Part shown: one piece after another, positions 3,783-26,217 of the stretch | How positions within the stretch are numbered: the stretch's first letter is position 1 | How the letters are laid out: the number at the start of each line of letters is the position of its first letter | Source of the DNA: a virus | DNA length: 64,000 bases | Virus record (IMG/VR): IMGVR_UViG_3300027920_000641 | Strand: one strand, 5' to 3' | Translations under genes and position numbers: made by a program | The notes under the pieces: model-generated | Databases searched by the model: none | Told to the model about the DNA's origin: nothing | Seen by the model: only the letters and a program-made list of their open reading frames with translations

Positions 3783-3783
3783 G

Positions 3784-8702: not shown

Positions 8703-8728
8703 ATTTTCTGCCCCCCTTTATATCTTCT

Positions 8729-8757
8729 ATTATAACATACTGTCTGTTATATGTCAA
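8729..8757 (-). promoter_or_regulatory. consensus sigma70 promoter (TTGACA-17-TATAAT)
   Basis: Reverse complement TTGACAtataacagacagtatgtTATAAT. Confidence 0.65.
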
Positions 8758-8766
8758 GCATCATTT

Positions 8767-9263: not shown

Positions 9264-9337
9264 AGTCCTCCCGTGCTACTTGATACTATTCGTTCCAATT
9301 TCCAATAACTTTATTTACAGCTCCCATATATTCCCCC

Positions 9338-9514
9338 TTATGCTACTAAGCTTTTTACAATTTCAATTGCGTCTGCATCTTGTTCTAACCATTGTTGGAG
9401 TAGCAATAGCATTTCAAACTTGGCTAGCTTCTTCACTTGTGCTTGTGCATCGCTCCAGTTCCCGTTGACATAGTTATCTATGATTGCTTGCCATTTTTCA
9501 TATCTTGTTGGCAT
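9338..9514 (-). CDS. hypothetical small protein (58 aa)
   Basis: Internal ATG (MPTRYEKW) of the track ORF, preceded by GGGGGAATT-ATG. Confidence 0.45.
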   Translation of the reverse strand: MPTRYEKWQAIIDNYVNGNWSDAQAQVKKLAKFEMLLLLQQWLEQDADAIEIVKSLVA

Positions 9515-9524
9515 AATTCCCCCT

Positions 9525-9701
9525 TTATATTTCAAAATACGTATATCCTAAAAGACCATTTTCTACTTTTTTAAAGTGTTTTTTTAACTCGACAATATAT
9601 TCTTGACTTAATCCTCCTGTACAGATACTTATATTATTTCCACCCGCTCTTTTAATTGAGTTCTTAACATACCTGACTGTTTTTTTAATTCCTAGCTTCA
9701 T
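9525..9701 (-). CDS. hypothetical small basic protein (58 aa)
   Basis: Self-translated MKLGIKKTVRYVKNSIKRAGG...; G8 run upstream of ATG; coordinates approximate. Confidence 0.3.
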   Translation of the reverse strand: MKLGIKKTVRYVKNSIKRAGGNNISICTGGLSQEYIVELKKHFKKVENGLLGYTYFEI

Positions 9702-9713
9702 GCCCCCCCCTTA

Positions 9714-9926
9714 TTACACAATACAATTGTCTGCTACTTTGGTCTTGTTGATTGCTCCCCCTTTGTTTAACCAACCATCTGAGATTAGAGCCTGAGCAGT
9801 TCTCCCGTAACTACCTTGGAGTTCCCAAGCACGTCCACTTTTTACTAAGAATGAAAAAAGCTTGAGTGTCTGGAGGTCTGATAGTTCCCCCGCTTCATAT
9901 GCTATTATTTGATCTAGTAGTGTCAT
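9714..9926 (-). CDS. hypothetical protein (70 aa)
   Basis: Internal start MTLLDQ of the track ORF, preceded by GGGGGGCAAGTT-ATG; the longer form would overlap the upstream gene. Confidence 0.45.
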   Translation of the reverse strand: MTLLDQIIAYEAGELSDLQTLKLFSFLVKSGRAWELQGSYGRTAQALISDGWLNKGGAINKTKVADNCIV

Positions 9927-9951
9927 AACTTGCCCCCCTTTATTACTTATT

Positions 9952-9980
9952 ATTATAACATACCGTGTGCTATATGTCAA
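9952..9980 (-). promoter_or_regulatory. consensus sigma70 promoter (TTGACA-17-TATAAT)
   Basis: Reverse complement TTGACAtatagcacacggtatgtTATAAT. Confidence 0.65.
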
Positions 9981-9987
9981 GTCCAAT

Positions 9988-10638
9988 TTAGCCCGCAAAC
10001 CTGTATTGGAGTGGTACACCTGATTTGATGTATTTCTTAGCTTGTTCCAGATGCTTTTTGTGTTTCTCCTCGATGTCATAATCGACCACCGACTGTGCTT
10101 CTTTTAGGGTATCGTCATACCCGTAATACCCCCAACACGAGTCGACACTTTTCCCCTCTGGATCATTTACCATGTAACCATATACATCGCCACTGATATA
10201 TTGATCGAACGTCTTGACCTCGTTCTCGGCTATTCTCTTAGCATCTGCAATCAGTTTCTTTGTTACCCTCTTGGTGTTCCAATTCTTGCGTATGTCCTCT
10301 TTGGTAACTACAATCCAACCCACTTGCCCACTATCCCATCGATCCGAAAACGGGTAACATCTCATCGTGATCCCGCTATGTTCATAGACAAAAAGTGGTA
10401 AAATAACTGCAATCTCCCCAACCGTCTCAGTGATCCAACCCACGAATGAGTCGTAATCGTCGACATACATGGTGTCCCCGTGTTTATCGCTGTAATAACT
10501 CTCTGGTATGATCGTATCGCCAAGTGTCCAGTTTCTTGACCTGTAATACATTGTTGCCAAGTTATCCCAGTCTCTCGGCGTCATATCGCTAGTATCTTGT
10601 TTAATCTCTATGGTATAACCTCTGTATTCTTCTTGCAT
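9988..10638 (-). CDS. hypothetical protein
   Basis: ORF track 216 aa; GGGGGGAATT-ATG. Confidence 0.55.
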   Translation of the reverse strand: MQEEYRGYTIEIKQDTSDMTPRDWDNLATMYYRSRNWTLGDTIIPESYYSDKHGDTMYVDDYDSFVGWITETVGEIAVILPLFVYEHSGITMRCYPFSDRWDSGQVGWIVVTKEDIRKNWNTKRVTKKLIADAKRIAENEVKTFDQYISGDVYGYMVNDPEGKSVDSCWGYYGYDDTLKEAQSVVDYDIEEKHKKHLEQAKKYIKSGVPLQYRFAG

Positions 10639-10647
10639 AATTCCCCC

Positions 10648-10998
10648 CTATTTAATTTTTACTTGTGAAGACTCAATATACTCAATTTCTTTGATTGCAT
10701 CTTGTAAAGCGTCCTCTTTGTTTGCCCTAGCTATATTTAGTGTGTTTTGCCACAAAAAACTCCCCTTACTATCCGTGCATCTAACTATTGCTTGATACAC
10801 TGGTTTACCTATTCCAATTGCTCTGGTGTGTGGTGTTAGCATGTCCCCCCCCTGCTTGGTGCAGTACTCTACCGCATCAACTATGTTACTAAAATACTTT
10901 GGTATTACTAAATCCAGCCCGTACACGGCGTAAAACTTTTCTGTTCCCTCTACCCCCATGAACAGCTTATAATCTTTGATGAAGTCAATTAGTATCAT
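10648..10998 (-). CDS. hypothetical protein
   Basis: ORF track 116 aa; preceded by the conserved leader element ggtagcaagtag..agggggacatc-ATG. Confidence 0.5.
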   Translation of the reverse strand: MILIDFIKDYKLFMGVEGTEKFYAVYGLDLVIPKYFSNIVDAVEYCTKQGGDMLTPHTRAIGIGKPVYQAIVRCTDSKGSFLWQNTLNIARANKEDALQDAIKEIEYIESSQVKIK

Positions 10999-11014
10999 GA
11001 TGTCCCCCTCTTTA

Positions 11015-11066
11015 CTACTTGCTACCGTGAGCGGGTCATTACAACCCGCCCCCGCTAGTAACTAGC
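11015..11066 (-). promoter_or_regulatory. conserved double-hairpin leader element, copy 1
   Basis: The palindrome gctagtaactagc plus the hairpin gcgggt-N7-acccgc plus a conserved ctacttgctacc leader; a near-identical copy lies at 12709-12758. Confidence 0.45.
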
Positions 11067-11613
11067 CTATTTGGTAGTGTCTAACCGTGAACGGGTTATA
11101 TCCCTCAACCTTGGTACTATTCAGCTTTTCAACATCTAGATTGACTTGATCGAACGTGTTGACGTCTGGATTTTTGATCCCCGCAACTGCTAGCTTAATT
11201 GTCTCATCAAGTATCGGCAAAACTTCATCTGGTTTCGCCCCGCAATAGGTGCAAATTGCCGTTGCTTCAATTCTCATGAATTGATATAACCTACTGTATA
11301 AATACTTGCGTTGCTCGGTTGTGAATAATTCCCAGTTATCGGATATCCAACTACACAACCCGCCCAAGTCCTCGACCTTGTAAAAACTCCTGACTTTAAA
11401 CTTGCAGAACCCATCGGTTTGATCGAGTAACATAATGTCGTGATATGTTCCCGCGTGTGGTTTATTTAATTTCCCCGTTTTTGGATTGATCGATTGAGTA
11501 ACCCCGCGAAAACCCTTGTTGGCTTTAAACTCGACCCAGAAAAACATACTAGTTCGTAATCGCCCGTATGGGTAGTCAGTTACCTCTACTTTTTTTGTAC
11601 TATGCTGTAGCAT
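11062..11613 (-). CDS. hypothetical protein
   Basis: ORF track 183 aa; GGGGGAAATT-ATG. Confidence 0.55.
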   Translation of the reverse strand: MLQHSTKKVEVTDYPYGRLRTSMFFWVEFKANKGFRGVTQSINPKTGKLNKPHAGTYHDIMLLDQTDGFCKFKVRSFYKVEDLGGLCSWISDNWELFTTEQRKYLYSRLYQFMRIEATAICTYCGAKPDEVLPILDETIKLAVAGIKNPDVNTFDQVNLDVEKLNSTKVEGYNPFTVRHYQIG

Positions 11614-11660
11614 AATTTCCCCCTTGCTATTTTATTACTATTCTTGACTAATTATCTCTA

Positions 11661-11689
11661 ATTCTAGCATACCGAGTGTTATAAGTCAA
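11661..11689 (-). promoter_or_regulatory. sigma70-type promoter (TTGACT-17-TAGAAT)
   Basis: Reverse complement TTGACTtataacactcggtatgcTAGAAT, the same family as 7813/8729/9952. Confidence 0.5.
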
Positions 11690-11708
11690 TAGGTATTTCT
11701 ATATCAAA

Positions 11709-12191
11709 CTATCTCATTTCAAAAATGATTTCTACATCACACAACCCACCGCAACCCAAATTGTCCCGCGTTTTTCTTGACAAATCCGCCACCCTACCAT
11801 GGCGTGCAAATCCGCCTGTATCAGTTACTATCGCCGTCGTGGTTGCCCCCGTTTCCGTGTTTTTGATAGTAACCTGCTTGTTGAGTAGCTTGTACTTGCG
11901 TACCGTCTCGGGTACAAGTGCAATTGTAGCCTTGTTGTCATCTAGTTTTTCCCCGTTCGCCATGATCAACCCATCATTGCAACCCAAACAGCCACCAGTC
12001 CAGTAGTAGGACGCTTGACCCCTGACAGTCAATGGTGCAATGGTAGGCGTCGGCGTAGGTGTAGCCGTTGGCGTTGGCGTAACCTCTACGGTCTCAGCTT
12101 GTGCCACTTGTGCCATTGGTTCGCGTTCCCGTGCAACCTGCAGACCACCAAGGCACAACCCCACCCCAACCAGTACAATTTCTATTTTCAT
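11709..12191 (-). CDS. secreted 3D-domain (MltA/YabE/Rpf-type) protein with TPTP linker
   Basis: Signal peptide MKIEIVLVGVGLCLGGLQVA, (TP)n linker, C-terminal KATIALVPETV...TDTGGFARHGRVADLS matching the 3D-domain pattern. Confidence 0.5.
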   Translation of the reverse strand: MKIEIVLVGVGLCLGGLQVAREREPMAQVAQAETVEVTPTPTATPTPTPTIAPLTVRGQASYYWTGGCLGCNDGLIMANGEKLDDNKATIALVPETVRKYKLLNKQVTIKNTETGATTTAIVTDTGGFARHGRVADLSRKTRDNLGCGGLCDVEIIFEMR

Positions 12192-12265
12192 ACATTCTTT
12201 GCTACTTGCTCGAGTAGTTTTGTGGCTTTTTTAACTTGCATAAGTTCCCCCCTTTATACTTGATA

Positions 12266-12466
12266 CTAGATTGATACATTTAACCCAAACCGCCCCGCCG
12301 TTACTATCTGGACGCCGTCATACCCGTTATCGCTTGCGTACTGTTTCCAGTCTGCTAGCGTCCCGACAGGTGCAAACCCGCCCGCCCCCGCCAATTGATA
12401 CTCTCGATCAACTTCTGGCGTACTATCTTTGCTATAGCTTGCCCGCTTGATGTATAGCGTGGTCAT
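12266..12466 (-). CDS. hypothetical protein (66 aa)
   Basis: Internal start MTTLYIK of the track ORF, preceded by GGGGGAATT-ATG. Confidence 0.4.
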   Translation of the reverse strand: MTTLYIKRASYSKDSTPEVDREYQLAGAGGFAPVGTLADWKQYASDNGYDGVQIVTAGRFGLNVSI

Positions 12467-12498
12467 AATTCCCCCTTGATACTTTATACTATAGGTCG

Positions 12499-12693
12499 TT
12501 ACTTGCCTACTAGATCCCAATTATGAGTTACACCCAGAGATTGCCAATATGCGATACTCTCACACTCGTATATCTGTTTCTTGAGCGTGCATATATCGCG
12601 GTTATTCGCCAACCACGTATTACGTTGATTGATTGGATCAAACCCGCCAAGCTTGCATAGTTCTGCAACCGTTAGCCGTGTATAGTGTCTCAT
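12499..12693 (-). CDS. hypothetical protein
   Basis: ORF track 64 aa; preceded by the conserved leader element copy 2. Confidence 0.45.
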   Translation of the reverse strand: MRHYTRLTVAELCKLGGFDPINQRNTWLANNRDICTLKKQIYECESIAYWQSLGVTHNWDLVGK

Positions 12694-12708
12694 GATGTCC
12701 CCCTTCTG

Positions 12709-12758
12709 CTACTTGCTACCATAAGCGGGTACGGATACCCGCCTAGCTAGTAACTAGC
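12709..12758 (-). promoter_or_regulatory. conserved double-hairpin leader element, copy 2
   Basis: ctacttgctacc + gcgggta-cgga-tacccgc hairpin + gctagtaactagc palindrome. Confidence 0.45.
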
Positions 12759-13119
12759 GTTCTATAAAGTGCATTTTACCGTCTACTTCGAGCGTAATAG
12801 CTTCTTGTCCCCACTCTCGAGCCTTTGCAAGTGTGAAGTTCAATACATTCTCGGCGTGCTTCTCTAGATCCTCGGTGGTCATGTTAACCGTAACTTTGAT
12901 GATGTTTTCAGTTACAATATCCCCCGCGTTACTCTTGTAATATCCCAAGCTTCTCTGGCTTGAGTTCGCCCCGCCTACTAAACCCGTGAAAAATAATGAT
13001 ACCTCGGACGCTCTAGCGTTGTGCTGGTCTCTGGTTATCTTGGTTCGTACCTCTTGTGTGCTAGGCACTTGAAAAGTGATACTGTGATCTAGTGTGAACA
13101 TGTTGTCAAATACTGTCAT
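12754..13119 (-). CDS. hypothetical protein
   Basis: ORF track 121 aa. Confidence 0.5.
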   Translation of the reverse strand: MTVFDNMFTLDHSITFQVPSTQEVRTKITRDQHNARASEVSLFFTGLVGGANSSQRSLGYYKSNAGDIVTENIIKVTVNMTTEDLEKHAENVLNFTLAKAREWGQEAITLEVDGKMHFIER

Positions 13120-13129
13120 ATAGTCCTCT

Positions 13130-13321
13130 CTATTGGTTTATACTTTGATACAGTTCTATATCGATCTTCTCTAGTTCCCCGAGTACCTCTGGAGAAAAAC
13201 TGTCAATCTCTTCTCTGGCTTGATCTGGATCGAAGAAAAACTCGGTTGTCTCCTCGAGTCTCTCGACTTCAGCCCGTAGGTTTTCAGATCTGGTGTGATC
13301 TGGTCGGTTGTGTTCTGTCAT
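13130..13321 (-). CDS. hypothetical acidic protein
   Basis: Track ORF 13130..13369; likely start at the internal MTEHNRP, preceded by GGGGGGACAGC-ATG. Confidence 0.45.
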   Translation of the reverse strand: MTEHNRPDHTRSENLRAEVERLEETTEFFFDPDQAREEIDSFSPEVLGELEKIDIELYQSINQ

Positions 13322-13432
13322 GCTGTCCCCCCTCTTGTAATTATTACGTAAGCCGTTGTAGTGGCTCATTTTAGGCTTTTTACTTGTTTGATATCTTATA
13401 CTGCTAGTTTTAAATTGTAAGCCGTTCTGGTG

Positions 13433-13486
13433 CTATCTAGTAGCTATCTAGTACTTGTCTAGTGTTATCTAGTACTTTGCTAGTGG
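13433..13486. repeat. iteron-like array: 5 direct repeats YTRTCTAGTRS at 10-11-bp phasing
   Basis: ctatctagtag / ctatctagtac / ttgtctagtg / ttatctagtac / tttgctagtgg in tandem; a further ctgctagtt copy at about 13401. Confidence 0.6.
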
Positions 13487-13770
13487 CTTAGATGTACACC
13501 AGTTCCCGCCTATCTGGGTTGTCTGGGTTTTTTTGTGAATGTGCGTGTCTGCTGTCTATTATGGGGATAACAAGCAGATTGTAAACTAGATCTTACTGTA
13601 TCAAACTGTATCATTTGTAGTCAGTTTTCAATTACTTATGCTATTCAGTCGTGCAATTGATAATTATTAAGCCGTTATAGATACGCACTCGAGGTGGATT
13701 GGATCGTATAAGATATATTATGCGACGTAGTGTGCATAGTACTACATACGCGACATGGGTATATATTACT

Positions 13771-13964
13771 TGCGTGCGTGCGTGCATGCCCCTGCTACAG
13801 GGGGGAGGGGGGGTACTACCTCGAGCGTCCAGAGGAAACTATATCTATCTATATCAGAATATATCACCCCCCGCACAGGGGGAAGGGGGTAAAGCCCAAG
13901 CTTATTGTATAAGTCCTGGACGGGATATGTGTCACATCTGGATATGGGGGGGCACCCCCCCATG
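13771..13964. promoter_or_regulatory. GC-rich structured island: (TGCG)3 tract plus three C-run/G-run hairpins with flanking G-runs
   Basis: tgcgtgcgtgcgtgc; CCCCTGctaCAGGGGGgaGGGGGGG; CCCCCCgcacaGGGGGaaGGGGG; GGGGGGGcaCCCCCCC; predicted ORFs in this region are probably spurious. Confidence 0.55.
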
Positions 13965-14014
13965 GTACAAAAAGCCTAAATATTATTGAACTCAAAAAAT
14001 TTTTTGAAAAATTT

Positions 14015-15016
14015 CTACAATTTCAGGTCAGAACCATCATAGGGCCTGTTGCAGTTGCACTCGGCGCAAATGTATCTGAGGTTAGATTGAGCATGTGCTC
14101 CTCCCGCTGCAAGGGGAAGAATATGATCGAGGTGTTTTCCATCTGGGTAATGAGAGTTATCAGCCATTAGTTTTCCACAAACTGGACAGTTAATGGTGTT
14201 TTGTTTTAAATCAATTAACCATTGTGAACTAACTCTCTCTACACCATTCTTTCTCTTTAGAGCTCTTCTCTTACCCTCTTTATTTCTTGAATCAGCACTT
14301 CCCTCTGGGGAGGAATAATAACACTTCTTGCAATATCCATGCCCTTTGTGTGGATATCTTTGGCTGTGACAATTACGACAGTTTTGATAAGACTCACTCC
14401 ACCTTCTAAGCACACATTCATGGGAACAATAGTGAGTTCTTTTTGATGGACATACCAAATAATTTGTTCCGCATGTCCAACAAGTTCTGCTTTCTTTAAT
14501 TGTATTAGCAAGTTTAAATTTTTTAGCGTAAAAAAGACCAACACATCTTCTAGAACAAAACCTACCTTCACCATCGCGAGGATTCTTTTCTTTAAAAAAT
14601 TGTGTTCCGCATACTTCGCAGTGACCTATCTCTCGTTTTTTGTGACACATCTTACACAGACCATTGCCAACATGTTTTCTTTTAGTAGTTCCGCACCTAA
14701 CGCATTGAGGGTATTCCCTAGACCAGGTAAGAAGTTTTTTGTAGGTATAGGGAGAAGATGGACTTTTCCGCAAAGCATGATAGTTTTTCATTTGACAGGA
14801 ACGCGAACAATATTTCCCCGCCCCATTACGTCGCTGAGAAGGACAGTTAACATACGCGATGGGAACATACTCCTTTTTGCAAAACTGGCAGATTCTAGAA
14901 AGAACTGGCTTTATTCTACTTTTACTAGAACAACTGCGAGAACAATAGAGTCCTTTAGATGACCCTTTGGGTAGAAATAGCTCGTGACAGAATAAACACT
15001 CGGCAGGCTGGCGCAC
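14015..15016 (-). CDS. Cys-rich multi-zinc-ribbon HNH endonuclease
   Basis: At least 6 CxxC...(F/Y)CSRxC ribbons followed by the C-terminal HLDHILPLAAGGAHAQSNLRYICAECNCNR HNH motif. Confidence 0.7.
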   Translation of the reverse strand: MRQPAECLFCHELFLPKGSSKGLYCSRSCSSKSRIKPVLSRICQFCKKEYVPIAYVNCPSQRRNGAGKYCSRSCQMKNYHALRKSPSSPYTYKKLLTWSREYPQCVRCGTTKRKHVGNGLCKMCHKKREIGHCEVCGTQFFKEKNPRDGEGRFCSRRCVGLFYAKKFKLANTIKESRTCWTCGTNYLVCPSKRTHYCSHECVLRRWSESYQNCRNCHSQRYPHKGHGYCKKCYYSSPEGSADSRNKEGKRRALKRKNGVERVSSQWLIDLKQNTINCPVCGKLMADNSHYPDGKHLDHILPLAAGGAHAQSNLRYICAECNCNRPYDGSDLKL

Positions 15017-15050: not shown

Positions 15051-15079
15051 TTGACATTTGCGACATTGTCTGTTATAAT
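15051..15079 (+). promoter_or_regulatory. consensus sigma70 promoter (TTGACA-17-TATAAT)
   Basis: TTGACAtttgcgacattgtctgtTATAAT; the predicted TSS coincides with the ATG at 15087 (leaderless). Confidence 0.6.
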
Positions 15080-15086
15080 TACTGGT

Positions 15087-15524
15087 ATGATTAAAATATT
15101 TCCTCAAGTAGAACAGAAAATAGTAACTCTATATGTTAAAAAGAAGCTTTCTTGTAGAGAAATTAAGGAAGAACTTGGTTTAAACATCTCTGTTCGCCAG
15201 ATACAGAGGCGTTTGGGGAAACTAGGAGTGATTCGCAAGCCTGGAGAGGCATTTGCACTAGCTGTTGCCCAGGGAAAAGTGACTTATTACCGCAAGCCGA
15301 AGTCTTTAAATGCCCCAAAAACGGTTCTTTCTACTCTACAGCGGCACAGAGTACTTAGTAGAGATGAATTCAGGTGTCAAGACTGTGGAAATAAGGTTGA
15401 AGATGGTATTCGACTAGAAGTTGTTTTTAAAAATGGGAATATATTGGATAAGCGAGATGAGAATCTTCATTCTTTGTGTAATTTGTGTAGACTTGGTAGA
15501 CAACGGAGTGAAACTGCCTATTGA
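15087..15524 (+). CDS. HTH-domain protein with degenerate HNH-like zinc finger
   Basis: LSCREIKEELGLNISVRQIQRRL HTH; C-terminal CQDCGN...LHSLCNLCR; track ORF trimmed to the first ATG downstream of the promoter. Confidence 0.45.
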   Translation: MIKIFPQVEQKIVTLYVKKKLSCREIKEELGLNISVRQIQRRLGKLGVIRKPGEAFALAVAQGKVTYYRKPKSLNAPKTVLSTLQRHRVLSRDEFRCQDCGNKVEDGIRLEVVFKNGNILDKRDENLHSLCNLCRLGRQRSETAY

Positions 15525-15851: not shown

Positions 15852-16231
15852 AGACTGCTGACCTTAAGAATGGTCTTGACAAATCTTCGTTACTTGAGTA
15901 ATATATAGGTGTCTTAGTTCTATTTGGTTTACAAGAAAACACTCAAACTCTGGGTGTTTTTTTGTTACTAAGCGCTTATTCTGAGTATTGACTTCATGTA
16001 GTAAAGATGATATACTGTTGTCATCAAAAGCACAGTTAATAAATTGAGTATTTACTCGTGTTCTTGTCGCAAGCCACCTTGCTAGTGGTCTATGTCAAAA
16101 CAGAGTTGCCTCGAGTGAGAACCAAAGGAGGACAAGAGTGGTGAATAATCTCACGAACTGCAGTTTGCTACCATATAGACTGATCTATCTAGTCATGGTG
16201 GCACGAGTAAGTACTTAATAAGAAAGGGAAT

Positions 16232-16648
16232 ATGAAGCCAGAAGAAGTTACACAATACATGAATGCTCTAAATCAGGGAATTGCTGATCTAGCAACCAAA
16301 CTGCAACAACCAGCAGAAAAAATATTCGAGTTGTTTCTAAGACAAAACTATGTCAAAGGAGTGGTGGGTATTTTCCAAATTATTGCAATTATCATAGGCA
16401 CAGTATTTCTTGTTAAGTTTTTTCAATGGGGAACTAAAAAAGATAAAGACTGTTGTGGTGGCAATAAGTTCTCAGATCCAGATTATTTTCCCCATATAAT
16501 GCTTTGTATAGGAATGGCTATTGTTATTTTGATTTCTTGGATTGCAGTTCTTTTTGGTGGATTTGAAGACGTCATATCTCGATTCATTAATCCAGACTAC
16601 ATGGTTATCAAAGATATTGTCTATTTAATACAACATAATACAAATTAA
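16232..16648 (+). CDS. membrane protein (2 TM)
   Basis: ORF track 138 aa with two long hydrophobic helices; AAGAAAGGGAAT-ATG. Confidence 0.5.
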   Translation: MKPEEVTQYMNALNQGIADLATKLQQPAEKIFELFLRQNYVKGVVGIFQIIAIIIGTVFLVKFFQWGTKKDKDCCGGNKFSDPDYFPHIMLCIGMAIVILISWIAVLFGGFEDVISRFINPDYMVIKDIVYLIQHNTN

Positions 16649-16658
16649 AAAGGAGCTT

Positions 16659-16886
16659 ATGCCAACAGATACATTTCGAAAAGCGTACACGGAGTTAACC
16701 GATTTACAGAAAGAAAACGTGGCTGTTATTAAGGAAGCCGCTGTTATCTTGGAGGAGGAATTCAACCATGCCGTTCCAACTGATGAAAGAAGTGAGCGAA
16801 GCCGCTGCATGGCCATTGCTAGAACTAATTTAGAACAAGCTATTATGTGGGCAATCAAGGGTGTTACTACTCCAAGTGAAAAATAA
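16659..16886 (+). CDS. hypothetical protein
   Basis: ORF track 75 aa; AAAGGAGCTT-ATG. Confidence 0.5.
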   Translation: MPTDTFRKAYTELTDLQKENVAVIKEAAVILEEEFNHAVPTDERSERSRCMAIARTNLEQAIMWAIKGVTTPSEK

Positions 16887-17046
16887 GCTCATTAAACTAC
16901 TAGGTGGGTATACTGAGGAAGAGGTAGAAAAAATGATCTTTTCCGCTCTTTGTAAATACAAGTTAATCAAAATGCTCAAGAAAAACAACGGAACTGATAA
17001 ATTACCAGACTACGATACTTTTACTGATGGAATGAGGGAGAGATGA
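16861..17046 (+). CDS. hypothetical small protein
   Basis: ORF track 61 aa; possible start at the internal Met (16933) after GAGGAAGAGG. Confidence 0.35.
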   Translation: MLLLQVKNKLIKLLGGYTEEEVEKMIFSALCKYKLIKMLKKNNGTDKLPDYDTFTDGMRER

Positions 17047-18260
17047 AAACATTTTGTTTTGGAACACCAGACGAGGGAGCTTTAACCCAAGCACGTAATT
17101 GCGAAGCGGAAGCAGAAAAGATAATTCTAATGGCTGATAACCATAAAGGCTATGGTATGCCAGTTGGAGGCGTGGCTGTCTACAAAAATAAGGTAAGTCC
17201 AGCAGGTGTGGGATTTGATATATCTTGTGGTAATAAAGCGGTCAAGCTCGATATTGATTATGATTCTATTAAAGACAGATTACCAGAATTAGCAGGTCAG
17301 ATATGGGAAAATCTCTCATTTGGCATTGGTAGAAAGAATGAAACCCCAGTATCACACGACTTATTTAACGACCCATCGTGGCAAGAGGTTGACTTTTTGA
17401 GAGAAAGACCTGAGTTAAAATTAAAAGCAGAACAACAGTTAGGTACAATCGGTTCAGGCAATCATTATGTAGATGTGTTTAGGGATGAAAACAATCAAGT
17501 TTGGGTTGGTGTTCATTTTGGTAGTAGGGGATTCGGACACACTATTGCTTCTCATTTTATGCAGTTAGCTGGTGACAATCCAAATATTATGGATGAGACA
17601 CCCCACACACTGTCTCTCGATACAAAAGAGGGGCAAGACTATTTTAGGGCTATGGAGTTAGCAGGTAGATACGCTTATGCTGGGCGTGATTGGGTATGTG
17701 AAACAGTTGCTAATATCTTGGGTGGAAAGATAGTTGATGAGGTTCACAATCATCACAACTACGCTTGGAAAGAAACACATGGTGGAATTGAGTATGTGGT
17801 TGTGAGAAAAGGTGCTACTCCTGCATTTCCTGGTCAAAAGGGATTTGTTGGTTCAACTATGGGTGGTGTTTCAGTAATTATTGAGGGAGTGGATAGTGAG
17901 AGATCAAAAGAAGCATTTTATTCTGCTATGCACGGGGCTGGTAGGGTTATGAGTCGAACTCAGGCTGCTGGCAAGTGGAAAAAATCAGTTGAAACTAGAA
18001 CTAAGCCAGATGGAACTGAATATCAGTTTAAGAAAAGAGTGAGAACTCAAGGGCTGGTCGATTGGGATAAAGTAAAAGCTGAATTGATTGGAAAAGGGAT
18101 TATTCTCAAAGGTGGTGGGGTAGATGAAGCCCCAGAAGCATATAAGAATCTTGAGGAAGTCTTAGAGTTACATAAAGGAACTATCAACATTTTACACAGA
18201 TTAACACCACTAATTGTGTGTATGGCTGGTAGTGACGAGTTTGACCCGTACCAAGACTAG
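17043..18260 (+). CDS. rtcB: RtcB RNA 3'-phosphate/2',3'-cyclic-phosphate ligase
   Basis: GTIGSGNHYVDVFRDENNQVWVGVHFGSRGFG and SAMHGAGRVMSRT are near-identical to E. coli RtcB motifs (GTLGTGNHFIEI...HSGSRGIG; HGAGRVMSRT); 405 aa versus 408 aa. Confidence 0.9.
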   Translation: MKTFCFGTPDEGALTQARNCEAEAEKIILMADNHKGYGMPVGGVAVYKNKVSPAGVGFDISCGNKAVKLDIDYDSIKDRLPELAGQIWENLSFGIGRKNETPVSHDLFNDPSWQEVDFLRERPELKLKAEQQLGTIGSGNHYVDVFRDENNQVWVGVHFGSRGFGHTIASHFMQLAGDNPNIMDETPHTLSLDTKEGQDYFRAMELAGRYAYAGRDWVCETVANILGGKIVDEVHNHHNYAWKETHGGIEYVVVRKGATPAFPGQKGFVGSTMGGVSVIIEGVDSERSKEAFYSAMHGAGRVMSRTQAAGKWKKSVETRTKPDGTEYQFKKRVRTQGLVDWDKVKAELIGKGIILKGGGVDEAPEAYKNLEEVLELHKGTINILHRLTPLIVCMAGSDEFDPYQD

Positions 18261-18292
18261 TCTTTATATAGTAATTGTGATACCATACATAC

Positions 18293-18766
18293 ATGGTTAA
18301 AGGATTCAAACATAGTGAGGAAACAAAACAGTTAATTTCAAAAGCTGCAAAAGGAAAAGGGAAGGGCGGCTTTAATGTTAAAATTAATTGTCCTAGTTGC
18401 CAATTAATAATGTCCCCCGCCAATTTAGCAAAACATCTTGGTAGGTGCGAGAAGACAAGGGGGCTCTTTCTTATGGGTAAAGAATTAAGTGTCAAAGAAC
18501 AAAAAATACTCAGAATGATTTTGAAGCCAACAGGATGGACTTTAGAAAATTATATATATCAACATAACAAACAAAATGATAGGTGTTATATTTGTGGAGA
18601 ATTGACCAAGAAAAGACTCTATGCAGACCATTGCCACAAAGAAAACAAACCTAGAAAACTACTTTGCGTCTTGTGCAATACAGGACTTGGGGCTTTTAGA
18701 GATGACAAACAAATACTATTAAAGGCTGTATCATATTTAACGGAGTTTGACCCGTATAAAGATTAA
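18293..18766 (+). CDS. Endonuclease VII-like (T4 gp49 family) HNH nuclease
   Basis: N-terminal CPSC..C zinc ribbon; DHCHKENKPRKLLCVLCNTGLG matches the DHxH..RGLLC..CN..G Endo VII signature. Confidence 0.7.
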   Translation: MVKGFKHSEETKQLISKAAKGKGKGGFNVKINCPSCQLIMSPANLAKHLGRCEKTRGLFLMGKELSVKEQKILRMILKPTGWTLENYIYQHNKQNDRCYICGELTKKRLYADHCHKENKPRKLLCVLCNTGLGAFRDDKQILLKAVSYLTEFDPYKD

Positions 18767-18779
18767 ATAGGAGGAAGAA

Positions 18780-18875
18780 ATGTCAGAAATCGAAATACTA
18801 AGGGGAAAAACACTTACTGAAATAACTGGTAAAGCTGGTGACGATGAACTTTTAGGAGTGGGGGACAAGGAATGA
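18780..18875 (+). CDS. hypothetical small protein (about 31 aa)
   Basis: AGGAGGAAGAA-ATG RBS; self-translated MSEIEILRGKTLTEITGKAGDDELLGVGDKE; coordinates approximate. Confidence 0.3.
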   Translation: MSEIEILRGKTLTEITGKAGDDELLGVGDKE

Positions 18876-18950
18876 CCCCTCTCACTCCGATTTCGAAAGA
18901 AATTCCCCTACTGCCAGGTGTTTATAAAGTAGTAATTATTAGGAGAAAAT

Positions 18951-19343
18951 ATGTTCAACTTCAACCAACCCCAGCCAGTTACTAAGGAAAGCAAGAGTAC
19001 TCTCGAATTGATCAAGCGCAGGCATGACATGGAGAGAGAGGAAGATAGGCGCAGACATGAAATGGAAATCAGGGAGATCGCGGCTAGGCATGCAATTGAG
19101 CTAGAAAAAAAAGACTTCGAGATCAAACATTTTAAAGATGAAGAAATTAAAAAGTTAGAAGGCAAGCTTCAAGAAGCGTCAATAACTATTGCTGTTTTGC
19201 AAAAAGAAAATAAGATGCTAGATAAAATTGTTGATCTAAATGGAGATATTGTCGATGTTAAAAACCTAGTAACGAAGTTGATTGATAAACTCCCTCAAAT
19301 AGATTTAAAAAGTCTGACGGTAAACAACAATGGCAACAGTTAA
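18951..19343 (+). CDS. coiled-coil protein
   Basis: ORF track 130 aa; Glu/Lys/Arg-rich heptads; AGGAGAAAAT-ATG. Confidence 0.5.
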   Translation: MFNFNQPQPVTKESKSTLELIKRRHDMEREEDRRRHEMEIREIAARHAIELEKKDFEIKHFKDEEIKKLEGKLQEASITIAVLQKENKMLDKIVDLNGDIVDVKNLVTKLIDKLPQIDLKSLTVNNNGNS

Positions 19344-19665
19344 TAACCCATGGGGATTGTTTCCCAGGGGGGGTGTTCCATACGGAAATGCTTGGCTTGA
19401 ATATCAAGCTGGGTTAATTGCAGCGGACTTCGGCAGGGAGTACCTAATGGAGTACGGTATTTCCCCAACAGTTGTGGCCAATCAGAATCTGCAGCCAATC
19501 TCTCTTGCCAGCATGGAGCGGGCAGTCCGTGAATTACCGAGGTGGGTGGAGGAACCGCCTGGTCAAGTGTGTCGGGAATTCCAACATCCCGATGAATGTG
19601 AGGAGCTCACTATAAAGAAAAACAAGACTTTGCACAAGCTGTATTTCGAAAGGTTTAGAAAGTAG
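19330..19665 (+). CDS. hypothetical protein
   Basis: ORF track 111 aa. Confidence 0.5.
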   Translation: MATVNNPWGLFPRGGVPYGNAWLEYQAGLIAADFGREYLMEYGISPTVVANQNLQPISLASMERAVRELPRWVEEPPGQVCREFQHPDECEELTIKKNKTLHKLYFERFRK

Positions 19666-21455: not shown

Positions 21456-22004
21456 ATGGGAGAACCAGTTGTACTAGATGTAACTGATAGTCATAAGCTT
21501 GTTAAAACTGACGTGCCTACGCGCAAGGGTGGTAAGAAGCCGAAGACGATGACCATGACCTCAAAAGATGGCAAGATTATCGAGGTTGAAGTAACCGAGT
21601 TATTCATGCGCGAATATCTTAAAAATGGTGGAAACGCTACCGCCGCCATAAGGAAAATCTTGCCAGAAACTCAGGCCGCTACCGCTGCCCAGCTGGGTTC
21701 GCATTATCTTGGCCAGGCTAAAAAAAGAGGTCTTTTTAGGGTTATTATCGAAAAGAAGGGCTATCATCTTGGGAAGCTAATGGATGTGGCGCTTGAGAAA
21801 ATGGATGAGTCTAAAAGACCAGACTGGTGGGACCGCATTATGAAGCTAGGCGGATATGAGGACTTCACTCCAGCTGGGGGGAATCAGACGGCCGTTACAG
21901 TGACCGCTAATATCTTTGAGGCCCACAGAAAAATCAAATCAGACTATGTTGATGGAGAAGTAGAAGATATTGAAAATCCTGCCGATAATGAAGATAAATT
22001 ATAA
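21456..22004 (+). CDS. terS: terminase small subunit
   Basis: FMREYLKNGGNATAAIRK matches the TerS (Terminase_2) helix-turn-helix signature; immediately upstream of TerL. Confidence 0.65.
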   Translation: MGEPVVLDVTDSHKLVKTDVPTRKGGKKPKTMTMTSKDGKIIEVEVTELFMREYLKNGGNATAAIRKILPETQAATAAQLGSHYLGQAKKRGLFRVIIEKKGYHLGKLMDVALEKMDESKRPDWWDRIMKLGGYEDFTPAGGNQTAVTVTANIFEAHRKIKSDYVDGEVEDIENPADNEDKL

Positions 22005-23577
22005 GAAATTTATTTTAGAGAATTTCAAGGTTTTAGACAAAGAGACGCAGATACCAGTTCCTTTTGAGCTTAATGTTGTCCAGGAAAAGTATTATGATAT
22101 TTTGCAGGAACAGTATGGCGCAGAGATGGAGGGAGTACGAGAAATTGTGCTTAAGGCTCGTCAGGAGGGTATGTCTAGTTTTATCCTTGCCCTTTTTACT
22201 GTCGATTTTTTGCTTCGTCCATATTCAGTTTCCATCTGTATTTCTCACAGAAAAGATGCTACTGATATTCTATTCAAGAAAGTTAAATTCTACATTCATT
22301 GCTATCTAGAGAATCTTGCCAAGAAGCTTGACGTTCCAGTTGAGAAGATTGAGAAGGAGTGGTTGTTATCAGATAACAAGTCTTTAATTGAAAACGCTGA
22401 GAATCATGCTACTTTCTACATTGGTACTGCTGGAGCCAAGGTTGGTGGTCGAGGTGGATCTGCTCGGAACATACTTTTCTCAGAAACTGCTTTCTATCAG
22501 GATACAGAACTGGTGACTGCACAAGAAATCGTGGTAGGTACAGCGCAGCAGGTTCCTCAGGGCAGAGGTATGATTTTCCTAGAATCAACGGCTAATGGTG
22601 AGGGTAATTATTACCAGGCAGAGTGGGAGCGTTCTAATTTGCCAGCTAGACCAGACGGTACTAAGCATAGTATCTACTACCCAAGGTTTTTTGGCTGGGA
22701 GGATTTCTATACTGAGGAATGGGTTAACCAGAAACGAGGAGAATTTCCTACCGAAAAGCTATGGAAGCAGGAATATCCGCGTACAAGTGAGGAGGCGTTT
22801 ATTACCTCTGGTACCCCATATTTCAATAATGAAATTCTTGACGCTATGATGAAGGCTGCGCCAGATCCCGTCCTACAAGGCAAGTTTTCTCCAGATGGAT
22901 CATTAGACCTTTTGACTGATGATGAAAACCCACTGGTTCGTATTTATAGACAACCAAAGTATGGAGAGCAATTCGTCATCTTTGCCGATCCAGCTGATTC
23001 CCAGGACTTTTGTGCCGCGGTAGCTTGTTCGAAGAAGGAGTATGATTTTCCCATTGTCTTTAACGCAGTACTGGCTTCATCTCAGTTTGGTTATGAATTA
23101 TACGCAATGGCAAAATATGTGTTCAATCTTACGGGATTATGGCCAAAGCTAGCTGTCGAGAGAAACACTGGTCAGGCTACTATCTATGTTCTCAAGACGC
23201 TGAACTATCCAGATCTTTTTAGAATGGTTGACTTTGCTTCTACCGCAGGTACGTATGAAAAAGGAGAAATCGGTTGGGTTACTACTGGGCAACTGTCTGG
23301 TGGAGAACTACAGGGAACAAGAAGAAAAATGCTAGATGACTTTGCTCTGGCAATTGGCCAGAAGATGCCTCGAATTTATGATAAACAGCAAATTAAGCAA
23401 ATGAAGGGGTTCCAGATTTATAAGGGTAGAGCTCGAGCAAAGTCAAATATGAAAGATGACCTTGTTATGGCTAGTTGTGGAGCATGGCAGGTACAAATTT
23501 TAACTCCCTCTCTTGATTGGGGAGATTATGACGCGGAGGCAATGAAACAAAATCGCGAGAAATGGAGATTTAAGTAA
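21970..23577 (+). CDS. terL: terminase large subunit
   Basis: Deviant Walker A LKARQEGMSSF, acidic nuclease-domain residues (FADPADSQDF), 535 aa, between TerS and portal; alternative start 21988. Confidence 0.8.
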   Translation: MKILPIMKINYKKFILENFKVLDKETQIPVPFELNVVQEKYYDILQEQYGAEMEGVREIVLKARQEGMSSFILALFTVDFLLRPYSVSICISHRKDATDILFKKVKFYIHCYLENLAKKLDVPVEKIEKEWLLSDNKSLIENAENHATFYIGTAGAKVGGRGGSARNILFSETAFYQDTELVTAQEIVVGTAQQVPQGRGMIFLESTANGEGNYYQAEWERSNLPARPDGTKHSIYYPRFFGWEDFYTEEWVNQKRGEFPTEKLWKQEYPRTSEEAFITSGTPYFNNEILDAMMKAAPDPVLQGKFSPDGSLDLLTDDENPLVRIYRQPKYGEQFVIFADPADSQDFCAAVACSKKEYDFPIVFNAVLASSQFGYELYAMAKYVFNLTGLWPKLAVERNTGQATIYVLKTLNYPDLFRMVDFASTAGTYEKGEIGWVTTGQLSGGELQGTRRKMLDDFALAIGQKMPRIYDKQQIKQMKGFQIYKGRARAKSNMKDDLVMASCGAWQVQILTPSLDWGDYDAEAMKQNREKWRFK

Positions 23578-24063: not shown

Positions 24064-26217
24064 ATGGCTGTAGCTGACAAAAGTAAATCAAAAAACAAAG
24101 AAGGTCAAATATTCACTGACGTTAAACGTCATATGGAACTTGGCTTTCAGGAGACTGATAGGCGAACCACGGGTAAGAACCGTATCGGAGCTATTTCATT
24201 TAACGAAGCAGATGAGCTTTTCCGCTCATGGTTAGATGAGGCCTCCTGGCCATACGACGCCCTGTTATTTGATCCTCGCATTTTTACTTTCATTTTCGAA
24301 AAGACTTCAAGATTAATTTCTAATAAACCAAAGGGCAAGCTGACTCCTAGAGAGGGCTCAGATATGCTTTCTGCCAAAATTAATAATTCTCTTCTGGATT
24401 TCCAATGGGATAATTCTAATATTGGTGGCACCATGCTTTCAAAATGGTCATTAATGGATATTAATGCCCGCAAGTATGGTTCATCTTTCGCGCTTGTTCC
24501 ATGGAGATATGAGACGGATGATAGAGACCGCACTGTTTTCGATGGTCCAGACATGAAGGTTCTGAACAACAGAGATATAGCTCATGACCTTTCTGCCACC
24601 GCTATCGAGAACTGTAACTGGTTCCAGGTTCGCCAATATGTAACGTTCCAAGACTTGCAAAATGTTAACGATGCTGCCCGCACTGGTCCAGTGTACAAGA
24701 ATCTAGATGTCCTTAAGGAGAAGGTTTCTACCGCAGAAGTCCATGGTGGAGAGAATGGTGGAGATACTAGATCAGTCAACTGGTTATCAAGGAATCGATC
24801 CATCTCTGGTTTGGAATTAGATCCAGTCGGCAAAGATCCTGTTTTCAGGACAATTGAAATAGTAACCGAGTATCGTAGAAATCGCTGGATAACTATTGCT
24901 CCAAAACACGGAGTGGTTATTAGAGATATCGAGAACCCATACCAGAATAATGAAATCCCTATTGTCATGTTGCGTTACTATCAAATAGATGATGACCTTT
25001 ATGGTCTAAGTGAGATAGAGCCAATTAAGGGGTTACAGAAAGCTATTAACGCTCTTCTATGCCAGTATGTTGATGAGATCAATCAGAAACTCTATTCCCC
25101 TATTGCCATTGGGCCAGGAGTTCGACAACACACTCTGGAGTGGGGAAAAGGCGCTCGTTGGATAATGAACAACCCAATGCAGGATTTCAGAATTGTTGAG
25201 TCTAGATCAGATGCTGCTCAGTACTTCAACAATACCTATGGAGTTTTAGTTAATGCCATGATGACTGCCCTTGGGGAATCATCACTTGGAGTTTCTAACA
25301 CACAACCATACCAGACAGATAAGACTGCTACCGAGGTTAAGGCTCTTCAACTTCAGCGTAACGCCAGAGACAATTATAACCAGATTTTCTTGGGTGAGGC
25401 AATCAAACGCCAATATATGCTATGGCATTCAATGAACCAAGCTCTTTTATTCTCTGATCCAAAAACTGCTCACTATATTATCAGAATTAGTGGAAGTGAC
25501 GCACTTAGATATTTCCAAGAACGTGGTTTAGATAAGATGTCTTTCGATGCAGACATTGCTGGAACTCAATTCGAGACAGAGAACATCCTCGGTATTAGAA
25601 AAGACCCAGAGAAGGTGCTGTCAAACAGTATGCTTCCAGTCTATCCTATTGCCATTGAGGAAGAAGGAACAACCCGCTTTGAGCCAAAGTTGAAGCTAGA
25701 GCAGGGAACCAGCAGAAGCGGACAATTATATGTTACGCCAGATGATCTGAAGGGTGTTTTTGACTTTTCGATTGACGTTCAATCTATGCAGGTTTCTGCT
25801 GATGAAGAGCAAAAGCAGGGAAGACAGCAGGCTATCCAAATGATCAGCACTAATCCAAATGTAATTCAAATGCTTCAATCAGAAGGTGTCAAGCCGAAGT
25901 TCAAAGACTTATTTGTCCAATGGTTAGAAGACCTGGGATTCCCAGATGCCGATAGGTTTTTTGAGAGTGCTGGTCAAGGCGCTGCTGAGGGCGGTGACCC
26001 AATGGCTGCTATCAAAGAAGCAATGGCTAAGGCGGGTGGCGGCGCAGAGGAAGCTGGGGCACCACCAACAGATACTGTCCCCTCTGGTATACCAGGAGGA
26101 ACTAATCCTAACGCAGGTGGGGAAGCTCCACAAGCAACTCCATTTGCAGTAAATAGGGATTCTGGGCAAGGGCTAGGTCCGATAAGTCCAAAGTCATTAG
26201 GAGAAATGGGAGCATAA
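24064..26217 (+). CDS. putative portal protein
   Basis: 717 aa, position directly after the terminase genes, Gly/Ala/Pro-rich acidic C-terminal tail; no motif verification possible. Confidence 0.55.
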   Translation: MAVADKSKSKNKEGQIFTDVKRHMELGFQETDRRTTGKNRIGAISFNEADELFRSWLDEASWPYDALLFDPRIFTFIFEKTSRLISNKPKGKLTPREGSDMLSAKINNSLLDFQWDNSNIGGTMLSKWSLMDINARKYGSSFALVPWRYETDDRDRTVFDGPDMKVLNNRDIAHDLSATAIENCNWFQVRQYVTFQDLQNVNDAARTGPVYKNLDVLKEKVSTAEVHGGENGGDTRSVNWLSRNRSISGLELDPVGKDPVFRTIEIVTEYRRNRWITIAPKHGVVIRDIENPYQNNEIPIVMLRYYQIDDDLYGLSEIEPIKGLQKAINALLCQYVDEINQKLYSPIAIGPGVRQHTLEWGKGARWIMNNPMQDFRIVESRSDAAQYFNNTYGVLVNAMMTALGESSLGVSNTQPYQTDKTATEVKALQLQRNARDNYNQIFLGEAIKRQYMLWHSMNQALLFSDPKTAHYIIRISGSDALRYFQERGLDKMSFDADIAGTQFETENILGIRKDPEKVLSNSMLPVYPIAIEEEGTTRFEPKLKLEQGTSRSGQLYVTPDDLKGVFDFSIDVQSMQVSADEEQKQGRQQAIQMISTNPNVIQMLQSEGVKPKFKDLFVQWLEDLGFPDADRFFESAGQGAAEGGDPMAAIKEAMAKAGGGAEEAGAPPTDTVPSGIPGGTNPNAGGEAPQATPFAVNRDSGQGLGPISPKSLGEMGA

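Follow-up and report, generated by a model that had tools for sequence, protein, structure and literature searches.

A phage-encoded RtcB RNA ligase, candidate for counter-defence repair, with a putative homing endonuclease in the 3' end of its gene

The DNA analysed here is a stretch of 64,000 nucleotides from an uncultured virus (IMG/VR record IMGVR_UViG_3300027920_000641), called below the window. On its plus strand, at 17043-18260, it carries a gene for RtcB, the ligase that joins 3'-phosphate and 5'-hydroxyl ends of RNA, and we suggest that the most plausible function of this enzyme is to reseal RNA cut by host defences. On balance we lean, if only slightly, towards such a counter-defence role. 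The first-pass annotation of this DNA had also linked rtcB to an adjoining nuclease gene related to endonuclease VII (Endo VII) and to a calcineurin-type phosphoesterase gene, and both of these tempting links have to be corrected. The explanation that best accounts for the locus as a whole, which we consider reasonably probable, combines RtcB-mediated resealing as counter-defence with a selfish endonuclease and an unrelated phosphoesterase.

The RtcB gene and its predicted product

That the open reading frame (ORF) at 17043-18260 encodes an RtcB ligase is hardly open to doubt, and here the first-pass reading stands: the ORF is full length at exactly those coordinates, and comparisons with Pfam, PHROG, PDB and predicted folds agree. 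The gene starts with ATG behind a ribosome-binding site, GAGGGAGAG, and the start codon shares the sequence ATGA with the stop of the ORF before it. The product matches the Pfam RtcB model PF01139 with an E value (expect value) of 1.1e-70 (239.5 bits, cut-off 27), PHROG 1075, 'tRNA splicing ligase', at 8e-75, and the solved RtcBs of P. horikoshii, T. thermophilus and human at 3e-32 to 2e-24. It remains below the NCBIfam cut-offs (112 against 407 bits for PRK09588 and 86 against 272 for TIGR03073) and is therefore a member of the RtcB family, but not of those named NCBIfam types. Structure prediction with AlphaFold2, based on 40 homologues, gave a model with a predicted local distance difference test score (pLDDT) of 86.9 and a predicted template modelling score of 0.86. 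When this model was compared with the PDB by Foldseek, the top 16 matches were all RtcB (E 1e-28 to 3e-21, template modelling (TM) score 0.65-0.76), and the first match outside the family came at E 6.5e-4 with a TM score of 0.23.

The active site of RtcB is binuclear, with a Cys bridging the two metals M1 and M2 and with an Asp and three His completing it (PMC9745838). We mapped these residues through a HMMER alignment to P. horikoshii RtcB (PhoRtcB), taking the residue roles from the same publication. The M1 ligands His234, His329 and Cys98 of PhoRtcB correspond to His158, His235 and Cys62 of the window protein, the M2 ligands Asp95, Cys98 and His203 to Asp59, Cys62 and His141, and the phosphate contacts Asn202 and Asn330 to Asn140 and Asn236. 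The nucleophile that becomes guanylylated, His404 in PhoRtcB, corresponds to His297 in SAMHGAGR (HGAGR being residues 297-301), where SAMHGAGRVMSR of the window protein is aligned to STCHGAGRVLSR of PhoRtcB. The first-pass annotation had singled out the catalytic His and the metal ligands as the residues on which the assignment depends, and by this alignment none of them is mutated; ligands, phosphate contacts and nucleophile are invariant across 40 members of the subfamily described below. Judged by its sequence, the window RtcB is full length with all catalytic residues present.

A homologue search with the window protein returned at least 8,000 viral, metagenomic and other relatives at E values of 1e-10 or lower. 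The nearest one, 90% identical, comes from short metagenome contigs (L070, L071 in our numbering of loci); the next tier, with 60-72% identity, is mostly viral or metagenomic, and bacterial members from Paracoccus, Paenibacillus, Acidobacteriota, Chloroflexota, Omnitrophota and others are approximately 50-64% identical. The sequences thus compared place the window RtcB in a large subfamily common to phages and bacteria, whose hallmark is a C-terminal tail, ...MAG-xx-(E/x)(F/Y)DP(Y/F/W)KD, found in 64 of 69 viral and 76 of 80 bacterial loci. The nine conserved residues of this tail extend beyond the canonical RtcB C-terminus throughout the subfamily; a sub-clade of close homologues is without the tail and ends in ...CMAE or ...CMAD. 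In PhoRtcB guanine is read by Glu206, which contacts N1 and N2, and by Lys480, which contacts O6 (PMC9745838). Both are replaced here, by Asp144 and Met394 respectively, and both replacements are invariant in the subfamily, so that the loss of the canonical guanine contacts appears, from the alignment, as a subfamily trait and not as a defect peculiar to the window copy. The tail may stand in functionally for the C-terminal Lys with which canonical enzymes read guanine O6. No earlier description of a conserved DPYKD tail was found in the literature searched, from whose coverage subscription journals fell outside. A further distinctive element, a beta-hairpin inserted at residues 312-334, is predicted with fair confidence in the model.

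The operon and its candidate promoters

Among the cellular-type genes of a tight plus-strand operon rtcB comes last; the operon begins with the gene of a putative membrane protein at 16232 and continues through an Acb2/Tad1-like gene and a 61-aa ORF (Table 1). From 16232 through rtcB the genes are separated by gaps of 10 nt or overlap, and the Acb2/Tad1-like gene lies two ORFs upstream of rtcB. Its product is, from its domain match, a candidate cyclic-nucleotide sponge of the type that acts against CBASS or Thoeris; its sole PDB match is to T4 Vs.4 (7uq2) and is weak (E 0.17). Such an operon mate supports an accessory, anti-defence role of rtcB. A consensus scan gave two sigma-70-like sites ahead of the operon and a still better one further upstream, a 12/12 match placed exactly where the minus-strand and plus-strand gene blocks diverge. 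The latter begins at the position from which an ORF was called with TTG (15051), and the true start of that ORF is probably further downstream.

A probable homing endonuclease at the end of rtcB

The 'Endo VII-like nuclease' of the first-pass annotation does adjoin rtcB and does possess an Endonuclease_7 domain (62 bits, cut-off 23.6; E 4e-17), but it is not a functional partner of the ligase: very probably it is a homing endonuclease that targets rtcB and has been inserted in its 3' end. The protein has an N-terminal NUMOD3 motif (27.6 bits, cut-off 20.4), a C2HC zinc finger (CxxC...HxxxC) and a beta-beta-alpha-metal nuclease domain of the Endo VII/Hpy99I type with DHCH...CN, which is conserved among its relatives. 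Its best solved match is the nuclease domain of Hpy99I (E 1.2e-5).

We also considered a Holliday-junction resolvase of the T4 endonuclease VII type and rejected it, given the NUMOD3 motif and zinc finger ahead of the nuclease, the poor match to T4 Endo VII itself (E 0.24) and the anatomy of a mobile element.

This anatomy is seen most clearly in a direct repeat whose 23-nt copies close the two ORFs, are identical at 20 of 23 positions and are spaced by 506 nt. The left copy (GAG TTT GAC CCG TAC CAA GAC TA) ends rtcB and encodes EFDPYQD, and the right copy (GAG TTT GAC CCG TAT AAA GAT TA) ends the endonuclease ORF and encodes EFDPYKD. It is the latter that corresponds to the consensus tail of the subfamily, and therefore the native rtcB tail now terminates the endonuclease ORF, whereas rtcB uses a recoded copy brought by the insert. 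From the repeat we deduce that a cassette of 506 bp was inserted just ahead of the last seven codons of the native rtcB, and that it supplied a recoded tail together with a stop codon. The 90% identical allele of L070 and L071 is without endonuclease and ends in EFDPYKD and stop, as would be expected; the DNA downstream of it is unrelated, so that an exact empty site was not recovered from these two contigs and comparison is confined to the left flank and the tail.

The arrangement has arisen independently elsewhere, and another pair of loci offers the best reconstruction of the insertion. In L025 the rtcB end is recoded as REEDPWKD and stop (GAA GAA GAC CCT TGG AAA GAC TAA), and the endonuclease ORF ends in GAGTTCGATCCGTTCAAAGATTGA (codons GAG TTC GAT CCG TTC AAA GAT TGA), which is identical at 23 of 24 positions, including the same stop codon, to the rtcB end of L019, its closest endonuclease-free relative. 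In L042 DPWKD closes both ORFs, and shorter remnants of the tail are retained in L084 (YKD) and L172 (HKD). In all nine contexts examined (the window, L025, L042, P0123, P0124, P0126, P0127, P0128 and P0134) the endonuclease gene starts 14-50 nt past the rtcB stop, and the RtcBs so linked, 386 to 478 aa long, are only about 45-50% identical to that of the window; more distant Endo VII homologues (L077, L078, L081) do not adjoin rtcB. The relatives came from the large protein search, to which scans of IMG/VR with the single protein and with a three-sequence profile added little.

Carrier alleles also often lose a tail residue that is otherwise nearly invariant. The penultimate Lys is missing in five of ten endonuclease-linked alleles (Gln, Arg in three, Ala) against 6 of 234 in which no endonuclease was seen (Fisher p = 1.5e-5), the latter group including database proteins of unknown genomic context; the other 228 of these 234 keep ...DP[YFW]K[D/E]. 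Arg or Ala occurs at this position also in several alleles near which no endonuclease was detected, and Gln, among the alleles examined, only in the window.

The simplest reading of these sequences would be that the point where the ...MAG codons meet the tail lies within the homing site, that the insertion splits this site, and that the recoded tail keeps RtcB whole. Cleavage of rtcB by the endonuclease is what we infer from this arrangement. More broadly, we find it fairly probable that there is a dedicated NUMOD3/Endo VII-type lineage, specialised on the last codons of rtcB, which performs a tail swap free of intron and intein and may thereby both spread and subtly alter a counter-defence enzyme whose tail may replace Lys480. 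No earlier description of rtcB-specific homing endonucleases or of such a tail swap was found in the same literature.

In some of the related loci the spacer between rtcB and endonuclease contains a near-perfect hairpin that covers the endonuclease start (L084 340-384, L085 2455-2500, L087 2452-2500), which is reminiscent of the translational control of T4 homing endonucleases; in the 32-nt spacer of the window no such hairpin is obvious.

The metallophosphoesterase

The phosphoesterase gene at 2180-2920 presents a similar case, in which the enzyme named by the first-pass annotation is genuine and the partnership proposed for it is unsupported. All five calcineurin-type motifs can be read by eye (DTHFGH, GDLT, GNHD, THE and GHLHG), although no Pfam model matched at an E value of 0.01, and the true start is probably the ATG at 2866. 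It had been supposed that the protein heals RNA ends for RtcB as a 2',3'-cyclic phosphodiesterase, which would make ligase, nuclease and phosphoesterase one RNA-repair module. Calcineurin-type phosphoesterases are able to heal RNA ends, as in Pnkp of Clostridium thermocellum, and a homologue of the window protein lies directly 5' of an RNA ligase gene in roseophage DSS3_VP1. That ligase is however Rnl2, which needs 3'-hydroxyl ends, unlike RtcB. In the window the phosphoesterase gene is 14 kb from rtcB and on the opposite strand, homologues of it, which occur in 937 deposited phage records, were found within about 6 kb of rtcB in none of 75 loci, and the nuclease of the supposed module is a mobile element with insertion polymorphism. 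Nor is there a biochemical need: ends with a 2',3'-cyclic phosphate or a 3'-phosphate are both accepted by RtcB, which opens the cyclic ones itself (PMC7824862, PMC9745838), and it requires the 3'-phosphate (PMC7824862, PMC12776372), so that a healing phosphoesterase is unnecessary and a 3'-phosphatase would destroy the substrate. A single module is thus largely refuted by gene anatomy and we consider it very unlikely; the phosphoesterase is an accessory gene unrelated to rtcB.

As a separate observation, in DSS3_VP1 (NC_055826.1, L169; 3013-4558) the phosphoesterase homologue is directly upstream of the ATP-dependent Rnl2, and it is conceivable that the PHROG 547 family sometimes heals RNA ends together with ligases of the ATP-dependent kind, which the window lacks.

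Neighbourhoods of rtcB in phages and bacteria

The company kept by related rtcB genes is informative about their function. Of 69 related viral loci, 22 have tRNA genes no more than about 6 kb from rtcB. In L021, L022, L027, L028 and L030 the rtcB stop is followed after 1-8 nt by a tRNA-Pro(UGG) gene, in L039 such a gene overlaps the stop, and in L001 and L002 it starts 75 nt past the stop; the pair is found in at least two RtcB lineages, and this tRNA might serve as a nuclease target or attachment site, or simply be transcribed together with rtcB. Other rtcB genes are situated inside tRNA arrays (L011, L041, L043, L048, L054, L106, L138). Genes of nicotinamide adenine dinucleotide (NAD+) salvage, encoding nicotinamide phosphoribosyltransferase (NamPT) and phosphoribosyl pyrophosphate (PRPP) synthetase, adjoin rtcB on its 3' side in L049, L051 and L066, and a PRPP synthetase gene lies near it in L084 (1502-2473) and L170 (3436-4404). 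In phages, NAD+ salvage is known to serve counter-defence. An HD-domain hydrolase is another recurrent neighbour.

Bacterial members of about 50% identity, from Paenibacillus and relatives, have upstream genes for RlaP (PF10127, E 2e-95) and TROVE/Ro60-vWA proteins, and such genes together with rtcB are known bacterial RNA-repair neighbourhoods (PMC12776372). From the RlaP, TROVE and tRNA neighbours we conclude that the subfamily is an RNA-repair family. No conserved protein partner emerged: in an all-against-all clustering of ORFs up to 3.5 kb away in the 69 viral loci no neighbour family occurred in more than four, and the window's own rtcB neighbours have no homologues around rtcB in 75 other loci. 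It follows that rtcB behaves like an accessory gene that is mobile and comes to rest among genes related to RNA or to counter-defence.

Two further observations belong to this set. L084 has an ATP-dependent RNA ligase gene (PF09414) near rtcB. A phage-like contig, L085 (1018-5468; likewise L086), combines a 478-aa RtcB and a homing endonuclease with a release-factor-like gene (PCRF and RF-1 domains) 2.2 kb downstream, a gene set that recalls the bacterial RtcB2-PrfH ribosome-repair pair.

These neighbourhoods bear on two other uses of the enzyme. One might suppose that RtcB is a general enzyme of RNA maintenance or host takeover, repairing collateral damage, processing or circularising phage transcripts, or being no more than a neutral host-derived passenger that the endonuclease keeps going. 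Indeed the subfamily is widespread in bacteria, where it occurs in Ro/RlaP stress-repair operons; the window has neither tRNA genes nor an identifiable target, the distribution of rtcB is patchy and its neighbours are unconserved, and the endonuclease could drive the spread of rtcB regardless of benefit. Against this, the protein is strongly conserved over thousands of viral and metagenomic copies with invariant catalytic residues, which argues for selection, and the gene recurs beside neighbours of the counter-defence type, namely tRNA arrays, NAD+ salvage genes and an Acb2-like gene. We hold general maintenance to be possible but rather unlikely. The other supposition is that the enzyme seals or caps DNA at breaks with 3'-phosphate and 5'-hydroxyl ends left by host nucleases. 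E. coli RtcB can reportedly act on DNA 3'-phosphate ends in vitro, according to work of the Shuman laboratory, and DNA endonuclease genes abound in the region; the genomic context, on the other hand, points to RNA (tRNA arrays, Ro/TROVE, RlaP and the release-factor-like gene of L085) and no DNA-repair partner is nearby, which makes action on DNA extremely unlikely.

Counter-defence repair: proposed course and points against it

We propose the following course of events for RNA repair as counter-defence. Host RNA polymerase would transcribe the operon early, from the sigma-70-like promoters near 15.9-16.0 kb. RtcB, with guanosine triphosphate (GTP) and Mn2+, would become guanylylated at His297 and pass guanosine monophosphate (GMP) to the 3'-phosphate of the RNA; cyclic ends would first be opened by RtcB itself, and attack of the 5'-hydroxyl would then reseal the strand. 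Metal-independent RNases, acting as effectors of defence or toxin systems, would supply the substrates by nicking host tRNAs in the most likely case, or possibly rRNA or mRNA. In this way RtcB would serve as a one-enzyme counter-defence alongside the signal-sponge gene, and the selfish endonuclease, homing on the conserved tail region of rtcB, may incidentally spread rtcB among co-infecting phages.

Several points weigh against this proposal. For an experiment in which a phage RtcB counters a defence system, the literature searched gave only speculation. The Acb2-like assignment comes from one Pfam domain match, and the promoter scan gave 15 sites where shuffled sequences gave 12.0 +/- 3.5; as the count is no higher than in shuffles, the promoter calls are suggestive and not proof. 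In the 64-kb window ARAGORN found no tRNA genes and Rfam gave no matches at gathering thresholds; archease, RtcA, Pnkp, Rnl, TROVE and RlaP were absent from the 67 further ORFs, among the families listed (25 of 28 for Pfam and 25 of 32 for PHROG). The host, and with it the defence systems, could not be assigned from blastn matches or from the large terminase (TerL), whose best match has 25% identity. The replaced guanine contacts make the cofactor specificity uncertain. The chief caveat on the window copy is in its replacement tail, EFDPYQD (residues 399-405), where the nearly invariant penultimate Lys has become Gln (K404Q): if the tail Lys stands in for Lys480, this copy could be weakened, and the model places residues 396-405 at low confidence only (pLDDT 50-73).

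One may go further and suggest that the window rtcB has been impaired by the endonuclease insertion and is perhaps decaying. The association of a changed penultimate residue with the endonuclease, the uniqueness of the Gln and the Met at the canonical Lys480 position in the whole subfamily, for which the tail Lys may substitute, all speak for such damage. The ORF is nevertheless otherwise intact and 90% identical to the endonuclease-free allele, the model gives no placement of the tail in the active site, and the existence of the tail-less sub-clade and of the Arg and Ala alleles means that the tail Lys is not universally required. Impairment is, in our estimation, quite unlikely, and we retain resealing of RNA against host defences as the favoured function.

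Genome context

Large terminase, portal and major head protein genes are encoded downstream of rtcB, and the window therefore belongs to a tailed phage, of whose genome it represents most. The G+C content is 40.8%, and genes run on the minus strand from 141 to 15016 and on the plus strand from 15051 onward. No close relative was found among 50,697 deposited phage genomes: blastn of positions 16000-19500 against these records gave a single match of 232 nt (7% of the query, 68% identity), which falls within a gene annotated as 'tRNA splicing ligase' in a Tunturiibacter jumbo phage. DNA polymerase, helicase and primase were likewise absent among the Pfam and PHROG families listed for the 67 remaining ORFs, and the phage, whose source contig is only about 65 kb long, may depend for replication on its host or on replication genes diverged beyond recognition. 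The first-pass annotation had spoken of an early module, a label for the minus-strand block that found no confirmation here.

Within the virion module there is a sugar-modification cluster of about 16 kb (31416-47534, plus strand), comprising an 824-aa double glycosyltransferase, four Glycos_transf_2 proteins, a DegT/DnrJ aminotransferase, uridine diphosphate (UDP)-glucose dehydrogenase, a GFO/IDH/MocA oxidoreductase and several S-adenosylmethionine (SAM) methyltransferases; it may glycosylate the virion, the DNA or the surface of the host. Endonuclease genes of the HNH/Endo VII type are unusually numerous, at 14015-15016 (minus), 15051-15524 (plus), 18293-18766 (plus) and elsewhere, with HNH PHROG matches in at least three further ORFs. 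A 174-aa pentapeptide-repeat protein is encoded at 626-1150 on the minus strand (Pfam Pentapeptide, E 2.6e-24), and a spurious 120-aa 'SQVST' ORF at 671-1033 is the repetitive antisense of its gene.

Table 1. Features of the window, with the evidence on which each assignment is based
Feature	Position	Strand	Evidence and remarks
Calcineurin-type metallophosphoesterase	2180-2920	-	PHROG 547 'phosphoesterase' E 5e-38; Aquifex 1xm7 E 1.8e-10
Extended sigma-70 site, 12/12	15051-15079	+	Consensus scan; TTGACA, 17 nt, TG-n-TATAAT
Second sigma-70-like site, 10/12	15876-15904	+	Consensus scan
Sigma-70-like promoter candidate, 10/12	15988-16016	+	TTGACT-17-TATACT with TG extension; nearest to the 16232-18766 operon
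Membrane protein, 138 aa (predicted), first gene of the operon	16232-16648	+	PHROG 1486 'membrane protein' (moron/host takeover) E 3.7e-13; no Pfam match
Acb2/Tad1-hairpin-domain protein, 75 aa	16659-16886	+	Pfam PF24729 E 3.4e-13, 50 bits (cut-off 27)
61-aa ORF	16861-17046	+	No Pfam or PHROG match; stop overlaps rtcB start (ATGA)
rtcB, 405-aa 3'-phosphate/5'-hydroxyl RNA ligase (predicted)	17043-18260	+	Pfam, PHROG, PDB and fold matches
Mobile cassette, 506 bp (boundaries inferred)	18237-18742	+	Replacement tail and stop, 32-nt spacer, endonuclease codons 1-150
Left direct-repeat copy, 23 nt	18237-18259	+	EFDPYQD and stop; replacement rtcB tail
Free-standing homing endonuclease gene, 157 aa (very probable)	18293-18766	+	NUMOD3, zinc finger, Endo VII-type nuclease; last 7 codons are the displaced rtcB tail
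Right direct-repeat copy, 23 nt	18743-18765	+	EFDPYKD and stop; ancestral rtcB tail, now endonuclease C-terminus and stop
Large terminase	21970-23577	+	Distant; closest is roseophage CRP-7 TerL, 25% identity
Portal	24064-26217	+	
Major head protein	29417-30247	+	PHROG 1328 E 8.5e-49

Comparison with known systems

Neither the presence of RtcB in phages nor the idea of its role in RNA repair is new. It was proposed in 2011 that the RtcB of mycobacteriophages of subcluster K1, such as Anaya gp88, undoes tRNA cleavage by the host (PMC3203893), and the hypothesis was reviewed in 2021 (PMC7824862). The window protein matches the same PHROG family 1075 as the RtcBs of these and of jumbo phages. The argument for the K1 phages was built on co-occurring tRNAs, whereas the window phage has no tRNA genes; what our locus offers instead is an RtcB that is catalytically intact by its sequence beside an Acb2/Tad1-like gene, which strengthens the case for RtcB as a part of the anti-defence toolkit.

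With the cellular RtcBs of the E. coli rtcBA operon and of P. horikoshii the window enzyme shares the fold, with TM scores of 0.72-0.76, as well as the two-metal site and the His-GMP nucleophile, and its size is about that of the short bacterial form. Its identity to the solved proteins of archaea, Thermus and human is only 24-27%, and it differs from cellular RtcBs in the replaced guanine contacts, in the hairpin at 312-334 and in the C-terminal tail. No gene for RtcA, RtcR or archease lies nearby. Of the partners in the bacterial Ro(TROVE)-RlaP-RtcB and RtcB2-PrfH systems, RlaP and TROVE/Ro60-vWA genes adjoin bacterial members of the subfamily, and a release-factor-like gene accompanies rtcB in L085, but none of these is present in the window.

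The closest functional parallel is the T4 pair Pnkp and Rnl1, which acts against PrrC. The logical role would be the same, the resealing of tRNA breaks with 2',3'-cyclic phosphate and 5'-hydroxyl ends, with which RtcB chemistry is compatible. The T4 proteins are unrelated in sequence and fold to RtcB, a single GTP-dependent enzyme that retains the break's own phosphate, and their repair has been proven genetically, while for the window RtcB it is a proposal.

The endonuclease invites comparison with the Seg and Mob endonucleases of T4 (for instance SegB in the tRNA region), which are likewise next to a conserved gene, vary in presence between close alleles and have the target altered in their carrier. 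That rtcB attracts mobile elements is not surprising, as it is already an intein host according to NCBIfam intein-containing RtcB models and PMC4760082. In cyanobacteria rtcB is known from neighbourhoods that also hold tRNA arrays and HNH endonucleases, and comparable arrangements of endonucleases and tRNAs have been noted in phages (PMC8421152). Current views are not overturned by the locus, and we regard the tail-swapping, rtcB-specific endonuclease lineage as its only fresh detail and a modest refinement. Unlike Seg and Mob genes and inteins, the window element is situated inside coding sequence with neither intron nor intein, carrying a recoded tail for rtcB and borrowing the native tail and stop for itself. 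It shows how a homing endonuclease can occupy a protein-coding gene without destroying it and, if our reading is true, how a selfish element may both spread and subtly alter a counter-defence enzyme of phages.

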